IMG/VR virus record: IMGVR_UViG_2531839474_000011
Source of the DNA: a virus
Taxonomy: Duplodnaviria; Heunggongvirae; Uroviricota; Caudoviricetes
DNA: 8,076 bases
Direction: 5' to 3' (one strand)
Position 1 is the stretch's first letter; the number at the start of each line of letters is the position of its first letter. A program made the translations under genes and the position numbers. The notes beneath the pieces are model-generated. The model saw nothing but the letters and a program-made list of their open reading frames with translations, was not told the origin of the DNA and ran no database searches. Below are positions 1-8,076 of this stretch, one piece after another.

Positions 1-1284
1 TTACTTCTTCGCCTCTGCAACCACTTTACTACCCACGCCGCGGTTATTGTATTCCCACATGCGGTTGTAGTTAGTGTCATTCAGATTGCGCTGTATTTCG
101 TCGTTATCATCTACGCTGCCGGTATTACCCGCAAACGGACGATTAGAGATCACCGCATCGGCCCACGGTTTAGCCGTGTTAAAACCTTCGTTGATGGCGC
201 TATCACGGATCACCACCTGACCGTTGGTATTGGCATCAACATCCAGCGAGCGGCCCAGTTGCGCCACACCATCACCGAAAGCATTGAAACGGCTGTTTAC
301 GGCGAGGAAACCGTAGTAAATGTTGGACAGCGTAGCCGGTGCAAACACATACGCTTCTTGCTGAGTACGTGAGTTCACCACGCGGAATTCGGTGTTATCG
401 AACACCACTGCGCCGCGACCAGAAACGATATCCACATCCCCTTCAATGTAGCTGTTGGTCACCAGCGTACGCGGCTGACGATTTGTTTCCAGACGGTTCT
501 GCACACCGCTGTTGGTGACAAAGAAGGTGTTCTGACGACCGAGAATGTTAACGTTGTTAATCTGTACCTGGTCACCATCAGTACGCAGTGCCACCGCCGG
601 ATGGTTACCTGCATCTACGCTATCGCCCAGCGTGTTTTCGATGGTCAGATTTTGCAGTTGCAGGCCATTGTTTTGTGACCAGAAGACCGCAGAGCAGAGA
701 ACACCGATACTGTCGCTGCGTTTGCTCTGGCAGCTATCGTACATATACCACGCTGGTTTACCTGGCATATATTTGCCGCGCGGGTTGACGTCGTGACGCC
801 AGTCGGCAGGGCTCATGCCACCATCAAGGGAAAGCCCAATCTTCACATCAATCGGTTTTTCACCTGTACCGTACAGAGTAATTCCACCCGGAGCGGCAGG
901 GACATATACCGTTCCCTGATACTCACCAGGCATCACGGCAATATACTGGCGCTTGTTGGTACGCTTGATAATTGCCGCATCTACCGCCGCCTGAATCGTG
1001 GTATGCGTTACACCTTGAGTGCCCGCCGGGCCGACAACAAAGTCAGGTTGCGCAGGCAGGGTAATCGGGGAAGGATTCCACGCTGCAGCACCTGGTGTCA
1101 GGGATGCAAAATAGTGTTGAGCATCGAAATTCTGCGCTTCTTTTGCCGACAGAATCGGGCGAGAAGAGGTACCAGGCGCGGTTTGATCAGAAGGACGTTG
1201 ATCGGGCGGGGTTGAGCTACAGGCGGTCAGCGTCACGCCAAAAGCCAATGCCAGCGCCAGACGGGAAACTGAAAATGTGTTCAC
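1..1284 (-). CDS. ybhC: YbhC-like lipoprotein (pectinesterase-family, putative acyl-CoA thioesterase); host gene flanking attB-lambda
   Basis: Complete 427-aa ORF. GTG start at 1284-1282 with GGAG Shine-Dalgarno 7-8 nt upstream; TAA stop at 3-1. N-terminus MNTFSVSRLALALAFGVTLTAC is a lipoprotein signal peptide with lipobox LTAC. Recognised from memory as the gene on the gal side of attB-lambda. Confidence 0.8.
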   Translation of the reverse strand: MNTFSVSRLALALAFGVTLTACSSTPPDQRPSDQTAPGTSSRPILSAKEAQNFDAQHYFASLTPGAAAWNPSPITLPAQPDFVVGPAGTQGVTHTTIQAAVDAAIIKRTNKRQYIAVMPGEYQGTVYVPAAPGGITLYGTGEKPIDVKIGLSLDGGMSPADWRHDVNPRGKYMPGKPAWYMYDSCQSKRSDSIGVLCSAVFWSQNNGLQLQNLTIENTLGDSVDAGNHPAVALRTDGDQVQINNVNILGRQNTFFVTNSGVQNRLETNRQPRTLVTNSYIEGDVDIVSGRGAVVFDNTEFRVVNSRTQQEAYVFAPATLSNIYYGFLAVNSRFNAFGDGVAQLGRSLDVDANTNGQVVIRDSAINEGFNTAKPWADAVISNRPFAGNTGSVDDNDEIQRNLNDTNYNRMWEYNNRGVGSKVVAEAKK

Positions 1285-2851: not shown

Positions 2852-2892
2852 TAGACTGGCCCCCTGAATCTCCAGACAACCAGTATCACTTA
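2852..2892. repeat. IS2 left terminal inverted repeat (IRL)
   Basis: Imperfect inverted complement of 4142-4182. Confidence 0.75.
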
Positions 2893-2942
2893 AATAAGTG
2901 ATAGTCTTAATACTAGTTTTTAGACTAGTCATTGGAGAACAG

Positions 2943-3308
2943 ATGATTGATGTCTTAGGGCCGGAGAAACGCAGACGGCGTACCACACAGGAAAAGATCG
3001 CAATTGTTCAGCAGAGCTTTGAACCGGGGATGACGGTCTCCCTCGTTGCCCGGCAACATGGTGTAGCAGCCAGCCAGTTATTTCTCTGGCGTAAGCAATA
3101 CCAGGAAGGAAGTCTTACTGCTGTCGCCGCCGGAGAACAGGTTGTTCCTGCCTCTGAACTTGCTGCCGCCATGAAGCAGATTAAAGAACTCCAGCGCCTG
3201 CTCGGCAAGAAAACGATGGAAAATGAACTCCTCAAAGAAGCCGTTGAATATGGACGGGCAAAAAAGTGGATAGCGCACGCGCCCTTATTGCCCGGGGATG
3301 GGGAGTAA
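2943..3308 (+). CDS. insC: IS2 InsC (OrfA; helix-turn-helix transposase subunit/regulator)
   Basis: 121 aa: [56 protein letters not shown]... Start ATG at 2943 is preferred over the upstream ATG at 2898 given in the ORF track. Confidence 0.9.
3260..3266 (+). other. programmed -1 ribosomal frameshift heptamer A-AAA-AAG (produces the InsCD fusion transposase)
   Basis: AAAAAAG in the insC zero frame (gcA AAA AAG tgg = A-K-K-W), at the start of the insC/insD overlap. Characteristic of IS2 and IS3-family elements. Confidence 0.75.
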
Positions 3309-4171
3309 GCTTAGTCAGCCGTTGTCTCCGGGTGTCGCGTGCGCAGTTGCACGTCATTCTCAGACGAACCGATGACTGGATGGATGGCCGCCGCAGTCGT
3401 CACACTGATGATACGGATGTGCTTCTCCGTATACACCATGTTATCGGAGAGCTGCCCACGTATGGTTATCGTCGGGTATGGGCGCTGCTTCGCAGACAGG
3501 CAGAACTTGATGGTATGCCTGCGATCAATGCCAAACGTGTTTACCGGATCATGCGCCAGAATGCGCTGTTGCTTGAGCGAAAACCTGCTGTACCGCCATC
3601 GAAACGGGCACATACAGGCAGAGTGGCCGTGAAAGAAAGCAATCAGCGATGGTGCTCTGACGGGTTCGAGTTCTGCTGTGATAACGGAGAGAGACTGCGT
3701 GTCACGTTCGCGCTGGACTGCTGTGATCGTGAGGCACTGCACTGGGCGGTCACTACCGGCGGCTTCAACAGTGAAACAGTACAGGACGTCATGCTGGGAG
3801 CGGTGGAACGCCGCTTCGGCAACGATCTTCCGTCGTCTCCAGTGGAGTGGCTGACGGATAATGGTTCATGCTACCGGGCTAATGAAACACGCCAGTTCGC
3901 CCGGATGTTGGGACTTGAACCGAAGAACACGGCGGTGCGGAGTCCGGAGAGTAACGGAATAGCAGAGAGCTTCGTGAAAACGATAAAGCGTGACTACATC
4001 AGTATCATGCCCAAACCAGACGGGTTAACGGCAGCAAAGAACCTTGCAGAGGCGTTCGAGCATTATAACGAATGGCATCCGCATAGTGCGCTGGGTTATC
4101 GCTCGCCACGGGAATATCTGCGGCAGCGGGCTTGTAATGGGTTAAGTGATAACAGATGTCTGGAAATATAG
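3266..4171 (+). CDS. insD: IS2 InsD (OrfB; DDE transposase catalytic domain, rve/integrase core)
   Basis: 301-aa ORF in the -1 frame relative to insC, starting [20 protein letters not shown]... and ending ...[31 protein letters not shown]. The in-frame start codon at 3266 is GTG. Confidence 0.9.
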
Positions 4172-4182
4172 GGGCAAATCCA
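4142..4182. repeat. IS2 right terminal inverted repeat (IRR)
   Basis: Imperfect inverted complement of IRL; ends ...TATAGGGGCAAATCCA at 4182. Confidence 0.75.
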
Positions 4183-4187
4183 CTTTG
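4183..4187. repeat. IS2 target-site duplication, right copy (CTTTG)
   Basis: Identical to 2847-2851. Confidence 0.85.
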
Positions 4188-4483
4188 TTTCCGTGTATCT
4201 TCATTTCAGACTTCAACAGAGCAACGAGGGAATCCCATTCGTTGAGGATTCCTTTGAATGCCGGAACGCGCTTTGCAACCTTGTTGAATGAATCTCTGAT
4301 TTCTGGAATCTGCTCAACAAGTGCAACGCATCGTCTGAAATCGGCTGCGTCATGGGGAGCGCCGAAGTGATGACCATAGATATTCTTTTTCAGTCCACAT
4401 GCGATTGAGGCAAGAGTTGCGCTACTGATGCCAACATCGCCAGTCGATTGCCATTTCAAAACCTTCATAGCCAAATCTGACAT
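4183..4483 (-). pseudogene. 5' portion of a phage accessory gene of unknown function, cut by IS2 14 codons before its stop
   Basis: Likely start ATG 4483-4481 (MSDLAMKVLKWQSTGDVGISSATLASIACGLKKNIYGHHFGAPHDAADFRRC...) with GGAGA Shine-Dalgarno 6 nt upstream. The ORF-track start at 4510 lacks a Shine-Dalgarno and sits in a terminator hairpin. The frame continues into the IS2 IRR, where 13 IS2-encoded residues ([13 protein letters not shown]) replace the native C-terminus. Confidence 0.6.
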
Positions 4484-4494
4484 TTCTTGTCTCC

Positions 4495-4517
4495 AATAAA
4501 AAACCGCCATCAGGCGG
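4495..4517 (-). terminator. putative intrinsic terminator between the zinc-ribbon ORF and the IS2-interrupted gene
   Basis: Minus strand CCGCC-TGAT-GGCGG followed by TTTTTTATT; the T-run directly abuts the GGAGA Shine-Dalgarno of the next gene. Confidence 0.45.
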
Positions 4518-4583
4518 CTTGGTGTTCTTTCAGTTCTTCAATTCGAATATTGGTTACATTGTTTTCATATATGAATAAATAAA

Positions 4584-4763
4584 TTAGCTTTTTTCGTTGC
4601 CTTCGCGTTCTTTATTAATTTTGACAAAATCGTTTTTACCACGCTCTCCAAATACGTCTTTAGAGTCGTTGTATCCGCAATCGCAGCACACATAATCATC
4701 AGACCATCCACGCATTGTTTTTTCTTTTGCAATATTTCCAGAACCGCATTTTGGACAAGACAT
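4584..4763 (-). CDS. small Cys4 zinc-ribbon protein (59 aa), function unknown
   Basis: MSCPKCGSGNIAKEKTMRGWSDDYVCCDCGYNDSKDVFGERGKNDFVKINKEREGNEKS with CxxC...CCxC. Strong GGAGG Shine-Dalgarno 7 nt upstream of ATG 4763; the longer 70-aa version starting at 4796 has none. AT-rich local composition. Confidence 0.55.
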   Translation of the reverse strand: MSCPKCGSGNIAKEKTMRGWSDDYVCCDCGYNDSKDVFGERGKNDFVKINKEREGNEKS

Positions 4764-4859
4764 ATCACTACCTCCAAAGCATGAGAGAGATGACAACGTA
4801 ACATTGATTGGAGATTAACAATAGATTGCTGATGTAAAAGATATGTATAAGCTTAGCTA

Positions 4860-5507
4860 TCAAAGAGGAGGTTCTGGTAGTTGCATCCAGTCGGTTACAT
4901 TGCGACTCTGTGTTTCGAAAAATTCATCACCATTGCGGACAATATCGAAAAACTCTCCGTCTCGATATTGCGCATAAAGAACGAATGCGCCATCACATAA
5001 AATAATTACGTGCTGACCATCATCTGGCATTAGCTCACTACAGCTTATCCAACCATCCGGAGTTACCGGAGAGTTGCCGGGTTCTTTAATGTGCAAACGA
5101 GGCTCACCATCTTTTGGTTCAGGCCACTGACGCTCCATGTTGATCTTCAATTTATTTTCCATAGCAGCGGTAATTTCAGCATCACTGATACCGGCACGGC
5201 GCTGTGCATCCCACAACAGGAACTGCATATCAGCCCACTCGCTGAGATCGTCAGGTTCGGCTGCGGCTTCCAGAGCCTCTTTTGAGAGGTGTTTCAGTGG
5301 ACCAATGGGGCCAACGCAGCCAAATGTGGAGTCAGACCATTTGGCATGCTCGTGGCGAACCCGCTCGCGTTCCAGTGAGGCGAGAGCGATTTTAAATGCT
5401 GTAAGCATGTGTGCTTGATCGTTATCGAGTCCGAATGGCATTTCATCTCGTGCTGACTCAATACTGGTAATCGTATTTTGTAGCCATTCCATGGTAAAAG
5501 TGCTCAT
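4860..5507 (-). CDS. 215-aa phage accessory protein; two-domain architecture resembling the DUF550/DUF551 class found near Ea22-like genes (unverified)
   Basis: ATG overlaps the upstream stop in an ATGA junction (5504-5507). Acidic N-terminal region; C-terminal region GWISCSELMPDDGQHVIILCDGAFVLYAQYRDGEFFDIVRNGDEFFETQSRNVTDWMQLPEPP. The domain assignment is from memory only. Confidence 0.65.
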   Translation of the reverse strand: MSTFTMEWLQNTITSIESARDEMPFGLDNDQAHMLTAFKIALASLERERVRHEHAKWSDSTFGCVGPIGPLKHLSKEALEAAAEPDDLSEWADMQFLLWDAQRRAGISDAEITAAMENKLKINMERQWPEPKDGEPRLHIKEPGNSPVTPDGWISCSELMPDDGQHVIILCDGAFVLYAQYRDGEFFDIVRNGDEFFETQSRNVTDWMQLPEPPL

Positions 5508-5875
5508 CGTAAAATATCCTCTATACTGGTAAGCCCTTCATTATTTAGCCAGATCATTGCGTCATCCGGCAACTTGCTGTCTGGTTTTGCGTTTTTGAGA
5601 GAGGAACTCAGTCGCTTAATCCACATTGTCAGCTCAGTAATGCGCCTGTGTTTGCCTTCCAGCTCAACGCGCAGCCTCCCTACCGTTAGTGCAATATCCT
5701 CGTTCTCCTTGTCGCGGCGTTTGATGTATTGCTGGTTTCTTTCCCGTTCATCCAGCAGTGCCAGCACAATCGATGGTGTTACCAGCTCATGGAAAAGGTC
5801 CGCGTCAAATCCCCAGTTGTCATGCATTGCCTGCTCTGCCGCTTCACGCAGTGCCTGAGAGTTAATTTCGCTCAC
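5504..5875 (-). CDS. Ea22-like protein, short variant (123 aa)
   Basis: N-terminus MSEINSQALREAAEQAMHDNWGFDADLFHELVTPSIVLALLDERERNQQYIKRRD resembles the lambda Ea22 N-terminus from memory. The rest is predicted coiled coil and the protein is shorter than lambda Ea22 (182 aa). GTG start with GAGAGG Shine-Dalgarno; GTGA overlap with the upstream stop. Confidence 0.7.
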   Translation of the reverse strand: MSEINSQALREAAEQAMHDNWGFDADLFHELVTPSIVLALLDERERNQQYIKRRDKENEDIALTVGRLRVELEGKHRRITELTMWIKRLSSSLKNAKPDSKLPDDAMIWLNNEGLTSIEDILR

Positions 5876-6093
5876 TTCGAACCTCTCTGTTTACTGATAA
5901 GCTCCAGAACTTCCTGGCAACTTGCACAAGTCCGACAACCCTGAACGGCCAGGCGTCTTCGCTCATCTATGGGATCGCCACACTCACAACAATGAGTGGC
6001 AGATATAGCCTGGTGGTCCAGGCGGCGCATTTTTATTGCTGTGTTGCGCTGTAATTCTTCAATTTCTGATGCTGAATCAATGATGTCTGCCAT
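5872..6093 (-). CDS. DksA/TraR-family C4 zinc-finger protein (73 aa), TraR-like RNA polymerase secondary-channel regulator
   Basis: MADIIDSASEIEELQRNTAIKMRRLDHQAISATHCCECGDPIDERRRLAVQGCRTCASCQEVLELISKQRGSK. CxxC-x14-CxxC spacing and 73-aa length, as in F-plasmid TraR and the lambda TraR homolog. Confidence 0.8.
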   Translation of the reverse strand: MADIIDSASEIEELQRNTAIKMRRLDHQAISATHCCECGDPIDERRRLAVQGCRTCASCQEVLELISKQRGSK

Positions 6094-6142
6094 CTTTCAT
6101 TAATCCCTGAATTGTTGGTTAATACGCTTGAGGGTGAATGCG

Positions 6143-6169
6143 AATAATAAAAAAGGAGCCTGTAGCTCC
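6143..6169 (-). terminator. putative intrinsic terminator (GGAGC-TACAG-GCTCC + TTTTTTATTATT)
   Basis: 5-bp GC-rich stem with a long T-run on the minus strand, in the 98-nt gap between the 93-aa ORF and the TraR-like gene. Confidence 0.35.
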
Positions 6170-6191
6170 ATGATGATTTTGTTTTTCATGC

Positions 6192-6473
6192 TCACCGTTC
6201 CTTAAAGACGCCGTTTAACATGCCGATCGCCAGGCTTAAATGAGTCGGTGTGAATCCCATCAGCGTTACCGTTTCGCGGTGCTTCTTCAGTACGCTACGG
6301 CAAATGTCATCGACGTTTTTATCCGGAAACTGCTGTCTGGCTTTTTTGATTTCAGAATTAGCCTGACGGGCAATGCTGCGAAGGGCGTTTTCCTGCTGAG
6401 GTGTCACTGAACAAGCCCCATGTCGGCAAGCATAAGCACACAGAATATGAAGCCCGCTGCCAGAAAAATGCAT
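6192..6473 (-). CDS. hypothetical protein (93 aa), start uncertain
   Basis: ORF MHFSGSGLHILCAYACRHGACSVTPQQENALRSIARQANSEIKKARQQFPDKNVDDICRSVLKKHRETVTLMGFTPTHLSLAIGMLNGVFKER. No clear Shine-Dalgarno at the ATG, which lies 10 nt after the orf63 stop, so coupling is possible. An alternative GTG start at V23 has a GGGG motif upstream. Confidence 0.45.
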   Translation of the reverse strand: MHFSGSGLHILCAYACRHGACSVTPQQENALRSIARQANSEIKKARQQFPDKNVDDICRSVLKKHRETVTLMGFTPTHLSLAIGMLNGVFKER

Positions 6474-6483
6474 TCAGTGGTTG

Positions 6484-6675
6484 TCATACCTGGTCTCTCT
6501 CATCTGCTTCTGCTTTCGCCACCATCATTTCCAGTTTTTGTGAAAGGGATGTGGCTAACGTATGAAATTCTTCGTCTGTTTCTACTGGTATTGGCACAAA
6601 CCTGATTCCAATTTGAGCAAGGCTATGTGCCATCTCGATACTCGTTCTTAACTCAACAGGAGATGCTTTGTGCAT
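6484..6675 (-). CDS. orf63: lambda Orf63-like protein (63 aa)
   Basis: [69 protein letters not shown] Shine-Dalgarno. Size, 28-nt overlap with the upstream gene and position relative to exo match lambda orf63. Confidence 0.7.
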   Translation of the reverse strand: MHKASPVELRTSIEMAHSLAQIGIRFVPIPVETDEEFHTLATSLSQKLEMMVAKAEADERDQV

Positions 6676-6830
6676 ACAGCCCCTCGTTTATTATTTATCT
6701 CCTCAGCCAGCCGCTGTGCTTTCAGTGGATTTCGGATAACAGAAAGGCCGGGAAATACCCAGCCTCGCTTTGTAACGGAGTAGACGAAAGTGATTGCGCC
6801 TACCCGGATATTATCGTGAGGATGCGTCAT
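6648..6830 (-). CDS. orf60a: lambda Orf60a-like protein (60 aa)
   Basis: [63 protein letters not shown] at 6830 forms an ATGA overlap with the exo stop, as in lambda. The ORF-track start two codons upstream (6836) is an alternative. Confidence 0.7.
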
Positions 6831-7507
6831 CGCCATTGCTCCCCAAATACAAAACCAATTTCAGCCAGTGCCTCGTCCATTTTTTCGATGAACTCCGGCA
6901 CCATCTCGTCAAAACTCGCCATGTACTTTTCATCCCGCTCAACCACGACATAATGCAGTCCTTCACGCTTCATACGCGGGTCATAGTTGGCAAAGTACCA
7001 GGCATCTTTTCGTGTCACCCACATGCTGTACTGCACCTGGGCCATGTAAGCCGACTTTATGGCCTCGAAACCACCGAGCCGGAACTTCATGAAATCCCGG
7101 GAGGTAAACGGGCATTTCAGCTCAAGGCCATTGCCGTCACTGCATAAACCATCGGGAGAGCAGGCGGTGCGCATACTTTCGTCGCGATAGATGATCGGGG
7201 ATTCAGTAACATTCACGCCGGAAGTGAATTCAAACAGGGTTCTGGCGTCGTTCTCGTACTGTTTTCCCCATGCCAGCGCCTTAGCATTAACTTCCGGAGC
7301 CACACCGGTGCAAACCTCAGCCAGCAGGGTGTGGAAGTAGGACATTTTCATGTCAGGCCACTTCTTTCCTGAGCGGGGCTTGGCTATCACGTTGTGAACT
7401 TCTGAAGCGGTGATGACGCCGAGCCGTAATTTGTGCCATGCATCATCCCCCTGTTCGACAGCTCTCACGTCGATCCCGGTACGCTGCAGGATAATGTCCG
7501 GTGTCAT
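6827..7507 (-). CDS. exo: lambda exonuclease (Red-alpha; 5'-3' dsDNA exonuclease)
   Basis: 226 aa, [69 protein letters not shown]...[11 protein letters not shown]. Recognised as lambda Exo. ATGA overlap with the bet stop. Confidence 0.95.
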
Positions 7508-8076
7508 GCTGCCACCTTCTGCTCAGTGGCTTTCTGTTTCAGGAATCCAAGAGCTTTCACTGCTTCGGCCTGTGTCAGTTCTGACGATGCGCGAATGTCG
7601 CGGCGAAATATCTGGGAACAGAGCGGCAATAAGTCGTCATCCCATGTTTTGTCCAGGGCAATCAGCAGAGTGTTAATCTCCTGCATGGTTTCATCGTTAA
7701 CCGGAGTAATGTCGCGTTCCGGCTGACGTTCTGCGGTGTATGCGGTATTTTCGACAATGCGCTCGGCTTCATCCTTGTCATAGATACCAGCAAATCCGAA
7801 GGCCAGACGGGCACACTGAATCATGGCTTTATGCCGTAACATCCGTTTGGGATGCGACTGCCACGGCCCCGTAATTTCTCTGCCTTCGCGGGTTTTGAAT
7901 GGTTCGCGACGGCATTCATCCATCCACTCGGTAACGCAGATCGGATGATTACGGTCCTTGCGGTAAATCCGGCATGTACAGGATTCATTGTCCTGCTCAA
8001 AGTCCATGCCATCAAACTGCTGGTTTTCATTGATGATGCGGGACCAGCCATCAACGCCCACCACCGGAACGATGCC
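7504..8076 (-). CDS. bet: lambda Bet (Red-beta single-strand annealing protein), C-terminal 190 codons; 5' end lies beyond the window
   Basis: In-frame to the window edge, ending ...[26 protein letters not shown] with TGA at 7506-7504. Matches the lambda Bet C-terminus from memory. The ATG at 8064 in the ORF track is internal. Confidence 0.95.

Follow-up and report, generated by a model that had tools for sequence, protein, structure and literature searches.

Where phage lambda carries ea22, the prophage analyzed here carries a reading frame of 123 codons, 59 residues shorter than lambda Ea22 (182 aa). Such a short version provokes two questions: is it a damaged copy of ea22 or an intact gene of a different make, and what would its product do? 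We addressed them computationally in the window, i.e., the whole stretch of 8,076 nucleotides in which the reading frame lies.

The window comprises Escherichia coli chromosome and the left end of a lambda-like prophage, which is integrated at att-lambda, beside ybhC. From the att core onward, the minus-strand genes are int, xis, a gene interrupted by IS2, a small gene encoding a zinc-ribbon protein, an EaA-like gene, and the 123-codon reading frame; beyond it, on the same strand, lie orf73/TraR, genes like orf61, orf63, and orf60a, exo, and bet. This segment is the exo-xis part of lambda's leftward early (pL) operon. The reading frame directly follows orf73 on the pL-transcribed (minus) strand, which is the position of a lambda-type ea22, and the order bet-exo-orf60a-orf63-orf61-orf73-ea22, all minus, is 97% identical to lambda as far as codon 73. 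The features that frame the locus are the following.

1-1284, minus strand: ybhC.
1331-1345: core of the lambda attachment site, GCTTTTTTATACTAA.
4860-5507, minus strand: EaA-like gene, 215 aa, with DUF550 (dATP/dGTP pyrophosphohydrolase; PF04447, E=4.5e-42) and DUF551 (PF04448, E=1.5e-17).
5504-5875, minus strand: complete Ead/Ea22-family gene, 123 aa, GTG start, TGA stop (open-reading-frame list, PF13935, RefSeq).
5872-6093, minus strand: lambda-type orf73, encoding a TraR/DksA-type zinc-finger protein (PF01258, phrog_54, TIGR02419), inside the lambda-homologous block.

Both neighbors, orf73 and the EaA-like gene (a label that comes from the annotation of its relatives), overlap the 123-codon gene by 4 nt each. 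In all ten other loci examined (nine plus locus L016), the gene is likewise preceded by orf73 and followed by a DUF550-DUF551 gene. The IS2 insertion in the neighboring gene is a mark of decay elsewhere in the prophage. A scan of the window against Rfam returned no match. A PADLOC search with the 123-residue protein gave a match at chance level only (E=0.007, 13 bits), which does not place it in a defense system; four of the five neighboring proteins had no match in that search, and the fifth, the 70-residue zinc-ribbon protein, had one at chance level (Cas12u2, E=0.0093, 13.4 bits).

The coordinates, minus strand, length, GTG start, and quoted sequence given for this gene in an original prediction, made from the DNA alone, all agree with the list of open reading frames. 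Its product matches the Pfam family Ead_Ea22 (PF13935 / IPR025153) over residues 2-79 with E=2.4e-21 and 77.2 bits, against a cut-off of 27; by the family description, P22 Ead is grouped there with lambda Ea22. A coding feature on the opposite strand, a 94-residue reading frame at 5574-5858 (plus) that matches phrog_13760 (E=2.7e-18) within a 124-codon stop-free run, is very improbable and was judged a shadow reading frame despite that match: it is the wobble-aligned antisense frame, in which such runs persist wherever the sense gene avoids TTA, CTA, and TCA (only three occur here), it starts with TTG, its translation is of low complexity and rich in Ser, Leu, and Arg, the equivalent frame in lambda is broken into shorter runs, it opposes the direction of the whole pL operon, and all RefSeq annotations call the minus-strand gene.

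We then consider how much of the gene is lambda. A comparison of the window with lambda 27700-32900 (blastn) located homology at 1331-2733, 4494-4557, and 5657-8076 only. The last of these blocks is continuous at 96-97% identity (window 5657-8076 = lambda 30177-32597) and ends abruptly at 5657, inside the gene. Past this point, lambda homology returns for 64 nt (4494-4557) and then, from 2733 on, through xis, int, and the att core. The gene and its surroundings thus fall into these parts.

5657-5875, minus strand: lambda-derived 5' part, codons 1-73, encoding the N-terminal segment and the first part of a heptad helix; 94.5% nucleotide identity to lambda 30177-30395.
5507-5656, minus strand: non-lambda 3' part, codons 74-123, encoding about three heptads and then a helix-loop-helix tail (ELTMWIKRL...KPDSKLPDDAMIWLNNEGLTSIEDILR); without lambda homology.
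4558-5656, minus strand: non-lambda substitution cassette of 1.1 kb, which has taken the place of lambda 29166-30176 (ea8.5 and the 3' two-thirds of ea22) and whose upstream end forms the breakpoint within the gene.

Codons 1-73 are of lambda type because the 96% DNA identity runs from 6500 down to 5657 and then ends; 69 of their 73 residues are the same as in lambda Ea22. At the protein level (BLASTP against lambda Ea22), 70 of 81 residues are identical (E=7e-50), and similarity ceases past residue 81; the weak resemblance between the joint and that residue arises because the exchange took place in register within the helix. From these data, we conclude that the gene is a natural chimera, with lambda DNA from bet to codon 73 and a foreign cassette from codon 74. 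The mosaic breakpoint that the original prediction had placed within the gene could therefore be mapped by DNA homology, at 5657/5656, directly after codon 73. The likeness to the Ea22 N-terminus that it had proposed is real and specific; its extent, given as about 55 residues, was an underestimate. The GTG start that it had singled out is present, yet is no peculiarity, being the ancestral lambda start: lambda ea22 agrees base for base in the GTG, in the ribosome-binding site (GAGAGG), and in the GTGA by which the gene overlaps the stop codon of orf73, so the start does not distinguish this gene. The corresponding feature, read from the sequence, is as follows.

5872-5887, minus strand: translation start region, with a Shine-Dalgarno-like GAGAGG (5887-5882) and the GTG (5875-5873) overlapping the TGA of orf73 (5874-5872).

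Could the gene nonetheless be what truncation or a frameshift has left of a full-length, lambda-type ea22, or an artefact of sequencing? Its shortness and the IS2-borne decay nearby speak for such a reading, which we consider scarcely credible. The C-terminal domain of lambda Ea22 was found in no frame of the window (tblastn), which excludes a frameshifted lambda gene, and no single insertion or deletion restores a lambda-like C-terminal domain; the pseudogene reading is refuted. Moreover, the DNA homology stops cleanly and is followed by a different, conserved sequence, whose encoded protein is maintained across phages in spite of saturated synonymous sites (see below). In every locus seen, the downstream gene is intact and its start codon overlaps the stop codon. 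Finally, the length of 123 aa is constant among many alleles (93-100% identity) in thousands of assemblies, with more than 2500 index blocks of assemblies involved. Neither of the two outcomes named beforehand as telling against a mosaic, a lack of specific N-terminal similarity to Ea22 or full-length collinearity with it through a frameshift, was thus observed.

The gene is also common. An identical protein is present in RefSeq (WP_001289876.1, "ead/Ea22-like family protein") and occurs in several complete genomes; NCBIfam holds no specific family for it. The locus was found in 51 of 5426 complete E. coli genomes (~1%). The exact sequence is present in 223 contigs, a 99% variant in 534, and a 95% variant in at least 1000, the last being indexed in 2587 blocks of assemblies. 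A comparison of alleles gave a pN/pS of ~0.2 in the lambda-derived half and the foreign half alike, based on only 14-16 substitutions. Hence the 123-codon gene is an intact, widespread short form of ea22, with the lambda gene's back half exchanged for a different sequence. Its sequence is already catalogued, and it is an ordinary case of the published mosaicism of ea22.

How does the encoded protein compare to known members of the family? It is encoded at the same place as lambda Ea22 (NP_040612), between xis and orf73 in the pL operon, and shares with it the start signals, the heptad register, and the Ead_Ea22 match. In contrast, residues 74-182 of lambda Ea22, i.e., its distal coiled coil and its alpha/beta dimeric C-terminal domain, are absent from the 123-residue protein. 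The NMR structure of that domain is a mixed alpha/beta dimer of residues ~102-182 (PMC10834534); no counterpart was detected past residue 81 by BLASTP, in any frame, or in the PDB. A C-terminal tripeptide K/R-G-E is common to the Ea22 proteins of lambda, Phi24B, 933W, and P27 (PMC7093339). Lambda Ea22 ends in KGE, whereas the present protein ends in SIEDILR. Profile match, synteny, and predicted architecture place the protein in the Ead/Ea22 family, but it is no lambda-type Ea22 in the strict sense (Dydecka 2020, Goddard 2024), because it has neither the C-terminal domain of lambda Ea22 nor a K/R-G-E terminus.

The genes called ea22 are mosaic, with variable C-termini (PMC7093339; PMC10834534), and the Ea22 variants of Stx phages (V1, V2, V3) are built on the same principle as the present protein, with C-terminal parts that can be exchanged behind a common N-terminal segment and coiled-coil core (PMC10834534, PMC8614690). 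933W provides a natural case of a shortened ea22, with L0065 as a separate gene behind it (PMC8614690). The differences are equally plain. The Stx variants have a 63-residue N-terminal insert that the 123-residue protein lacks, their C-terminal domains are larger and unrelated to its tail, and matches to Stx-phage proteins cover residues 1-93 of the query only, at 57% identity; V2 ends in a DUF551 domain, whereas here DUF551 is located in the next gene. The tail is of a type outside the published lambda, V1, V2, and V3 classes of Ea22.

A monomeric model from AlphaFold2 (AF2), computed with a deep alignment, has a mean pLDDT of 86.5 and values of ~90 at residues 81-110; with a shallow alignment of near-identical alleles, the tail was modeled with low confidence. 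The model contains helices at residues 6-18 and 25-31, a long helix (34-96), a loop (97-101), and two further helices (102-112 and 118-122). The predicted fold would thus consist of a short N-terminal helical segment, a single helix of ~60 residues (34-96), and a helix-loop-helix tail of ~27 residues. When V37 is taken as an "a" position, the a/d residues from 61 to 93 read I, V, L, L, K, I, L, I, L, L, nine of the ten being hydrophobic. This register is common to lambda, also past the joint, and continues for about three heptads beyond it, to approximately residue 96. [quoted passage not shown] The original prediction had described the C-terminus as a divergent coiled coil. Divergent it is, and the heptads do extend to ~96; residues 97-123, however, are modeled as the loop and two short helices. 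A sequence search of the PDB gave no match above chance, Foldseek found no match with E<1 against the PDB, and against BFVD it found only N15 gp45, already known from sequence; these searches therefore provided no fold-based clue to function.

N15 gp45 leads on to the nature of the foreign half. The module encoded by codons 74-123 is also present at the C-terminus of N15 gp45, Sb32 of the Salmonella phage ST64B, ArgO145 gp10, and Rac HP4, where ~45 residues at the extreme C-terminus are 55-64% identical to the tail of the 123-residue protein. Their other parts differ: Sb32 is likewise Ead/Ea22-like, but with long inserts, whereas the N-terminal parts of N15 gp45 and ArgO145 gp10 are unrelated to lambda Ea22. 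Residues 73-123 match the C-terminal ends of three PHROG profiles (phrog_660, phrog_924, and phrog_8171; E=5e-16, 6e-11, and 4e-08). The motif, which was found at the extreme C-terminus here as well, may be written ELTMW(V/I)KRL..SL+.A.PDSKL...AM.YL...GLIS.ED.LR. A word-indexed protein search with the 50-residue tail alone returned a single match, the query being too short for the index. When 1.84 billion cluster representatives were searched exhaustively with HMMER, on the other hand, the tail was located in 251 clusters (at 50% identity); the proteins are 51-395 aa long, and in nearly all of them the match ends on the last residue. Among 150 tail-bearing representatives scanned with Pfam, Ead_Ea22 was present in 22, DUF550 in four, and DUF3850/ASCH in two; the majority lacked any Pfam domain, and the tail itself is covered by none of the Pfam families. 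One apparent hit, P0123 (756 aa, with seven "tail" stretches), was rejected: it is a repeated GTPase segment that matched spuriously through low complexity and is no tail protein.

The pattern of conservation in the tail is pronounced. Three residues (K87, L89, and L122) are invariant in the 150 cluster representatives, and 20 more positions are conserved in at least 90% of them: E81, L82, M84, W85, R88, S92, L93, S100, K101, L102, A106, M107, 109, L110, G114, L115, 116, 118, D120, and R123. At three of these the 123-residue protein departs from the family residue, with W for Y at 109, T for I at 116, and I for V at 118. Over 43 codons compared between phages, the tail DNA is 58-68% identical, pS is 0.76-0.91 in most pairs, and pN is 0.16-0.25. 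Saturated synonymous sites combined with a low pN thus indicate selection on the tail peptide, and by this comparison of sequences the tail is under strong purifying selection. We conclude that the tail is a portable C-terminal module of hundreds of otherwise unrelated prophage early proteins and that it is conserved as protein. The divergent coiled coil that had been proposed for this end of the protein thereby gives way to a recurrent, portable tail module.

The end of the tail contains a second kind of information. The last codons of the gene are GAG GAT ATT TTA CGA TGA, and the overlapping ATG is the start codon of the DUF550-DUF551 gene. The junction, read from the sequence, is as follows.

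5504-5521, minus strand: junction with the next gene, in which GAGGA (5521-5517), formed by the codons of E119 and D120, is separated by 9 nt from the ATGA (5507-5504) where stop and start overlap.

Because a GAGGA, a 9-nt spacer, and an overlapping ATG coincide with its end, the tail would also carry a translational-coupling signal: its last codons supply a Shine-Dalgarno sequence and the overlapping ATGA, through which translation of the next gene is predicted to be coupled. The same ending, GAGGAT-N8-ATGA, is found in the genes for N15 gp45, ST64B Sb32, and ArgO145 gp10, with GTGA in Rac HP4 (five contexts examined). The gene after the tail often starts with MxTxTKEWLQ; here, its product begins MSTFTMEWLQ.

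These observations raise the question of whether it is chiefly the DNA or RNA of the tail that is conserved, as a recombination linker and a carrier of the ribosome-binding and ATGA signal. The peptide would then be functionless in itself, and the protein would act, if at all, through its N-terminal 73 residues. The encoding of GAGGA-N9-ATGA by the last five codons in the five contexts accords with this idea, as do the almost unfailing position of the module at the extreme C-terminus and the frequent MxTxTKEWLQ-like beginning of the following gene, which is what a conserved junction should look like. Still, we regard it as improbable. The divergence of the DNA and the contrast between pS and pN point to selection on amino acids across all 43 codons, well beyond the last five; DNA so diverged is a poor substrate for recombination; three tail positions are invariant and 20 nearly so; and AF2 models it confidently when given a deep alignment. 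One may instead imagine the two properties united, with the ~45-residue tail being an undescribed portable domain that recombination has attached to many unrelated "cargo" proteins of prophage early regions. It would direct them to one common partner in the host or phage, or to a common oligomeric state, and would bring the next gene's ribosome-binding site and start in its own codons, a combined protein-docking and translational-coupling cassette driving modular exchange in lambdoid ea/exo-xis regions. This broader proposal is possible, if doubtful.

What, then, might the protein do? Deletion of ea22 in lambda and in the Stx phage Phi24B lowers lysogenization and raises burst size or phage yield (PMC7093339; PMC10834534), so that the link to the lysis-lysogeny decision drawn in the original prediction has a footing in the literature. 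Ea22 forms tetramers, and for the pro-lysogenic effect the C-terminal domain by itself does not suffice (PMC7093339; PMC10834534). The C-terminal parts vary between phages while this effect is kept (PMC7093339, PMC10834534, PMC8614690).

Joint action with the downstream EaA-like protein is a serious alternative. In its strict form, the short Ea22-like protein would be a partner or regulator of the DUF550-DUF551 enzyme, the two genes being equivalent to a fused Ea22-DUF551, and would not itself be a lysis-lysogeny factor. The ATGA overlap and the adjacency of the two genes in each of the ten other loci are in keeping with such a partnership, as are several further observations: variant V2 has DUF551 as its C-terminal domain (PMC10834534), the C-terminal domain of the split 933W ea22 is the separate gene L0065 (PMC8614690), a phage gene annotated as Ea22 (H171) matches the DUF551 part of the downstream protein, and DUF550 occurs in some tail-bearing proteins (P0168 and P0194; four of 150). 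Adjacency, however, is expected anyway, because both genes lie on the same substitution cassette. Further, the genes downstream of N15 gp45, Sb32, ArgO145 gp10, and Rac HP4 differ from the one here, and the tail-bearing genes of N15, ST64B, and ArgO145 have different downstream partners or none. On balance, we deem the strict form of this partnership unlikely.

The explanation that we favor, and regard as likely, joins the strands above: the gene is an intact short Ead/Ea22 chimera in the pL operon of a lambda-like prophage, with a portable tail, coupling to both neighboring genes, and an oligomeric, pro-lysogenic accessory role inferred for its product. The 123-residue protein would be made early from pL and, by analogy with the lambda tetramer, would oligomerize through its heptad helix. 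Like Ea22, it would be a non-essential accessory factor that tips development toward lysogeny, and the tail, standing in place of the lambda C-terminal domain, may serve for contact with a partner or for capping. Its most likely role is thus probably that of an oligomeric, non-essential early accessory protein that biases the phage toward lysogeny. This role is extrapolated from the Ea22 proteins of lambda and Phi24B at full length, whose C-terminal domains are unlike the present one; with neither lambda's C-terminal domain nor K/R-G-E at its end, the 123-residue protein may have lost or altered the pro-lysogenic activity.

For the field as a whole, the locus changes little: the mosaicism of ea22, with a conserved N-terminal and coiled-coil core, interchangeable C-termini, and split versions, has already been published. 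It does constitute a natural domain swap, with the first 73 residues of lambda Ea22 nearly unchanged, a lambda-like exo-xis block around them, and the lambda C-terminal domain missing, and it can therefore be used to ask which activities of Ea22 need that domain. The recurrent tail, doubling as a coupling signal, is a small, clean illustration of segment exchange between lambdoid phages at in-frame joints. Nor is the joint after codon 73 the sole site of exchange: in an alignment of proteins of 123-168 aa, the same core and tail are fused to many different N-terminal inserts, and the gene accordingly has at least two recombination zones.

The N-terminus of the DUF550-DUF551 protein, whose gene lies immediately downstream of the Ea22-like gene, constitutes a second portable module besides the C-terminal tail.

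4860-5507, minus strand: DUF550-DUF551 protein, with the N-terminal module MSTFTMEWLQNTI...FGLD...ALASLE (also found in two comparison loci, at 1225-1641 in L003 and 1641-2474 in L004)

This module is common to N15 gp45, ST64B Sb31 and, judging from their consensus, most proteins that carry the tail. Both elements are present in a single family, phrog_660, and the two often flank one gene junction.

The Ea22-like gene itself contains an open reading frame on the opposite strand.

5574-5858, plus strand: antisense ORF of 94 aa with a TTG start; match to phrog_13760 (E=2.7e-18)

It occupies the wobble-aligned antisense frame, and its translation is rich in Ser, Leu and Arg. We consider it most likely to be a shadow ORF, which suggests, in turn, that this PHROG arose from erroneous antisense ORF calls within ea22 genes.

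Three further features concern the orf61 region and its surroundings.

6155-6169, minus strand: terminator-like hairpin in the interval that separates the orf61-like gene from orf73; sequence GGAGCTACAGGCTCC, then TTTTTT
6192-6473, minus strand: ORF of 93 aa over the orf61 region, where relatives annotate a 71-aa protein
2565-3629 in L008 and L010 (related prophages): DndB-domain gene, 354 aa, replacing orf63/orf61

The orf61-region protein of the relatives is named “cell division protein ZapA” in one record and “hypothetical protein” in another. A Pfam search of the 93-aa ORF returned no match, so “ZapA” appears to be an over-annotation. Some relatives with the same 123-aa Ea22-like gene harbor the DndB-domain gene instead of orf63/orf61; this gene is a further substitution cassette of the exo-xis block. 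The hairpin, which is located on the operon strand within the lambda-homologous block, may correspond to a known pL-operon terminator that is passed via N antitermination.

The remaining features lie toward the host junction.

1331-1345: exact lambda att core, GCTTTTTTATACTAA, adjoining ybhC
2853-4182: IS2, with ORFs at 2898-3308 and 3266-4171, plus strand
4142-4510, minus strand: prophage gene disrupted by IS2, 114 aa, phrog_1229

The att core marks the prophage/host boundary, and the int and xis genes (1419-2685) share 98% identity with lambda. The 102-aa “xis” obtained by ORF calling is over-extended; the gene proper encodes 72 aa. IS2 was inserted at the 3' end of the phrog_1229 gene, such that IS-derived sequence stands in place of the last 14 residues of the protein when compared to the IS-free relative NZ_CP148323 (L016). 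The window and this relative differ in length by 1336-1337 bp, a value consistent with an IS2 of 1.33 kb together with a short duplication of the target.
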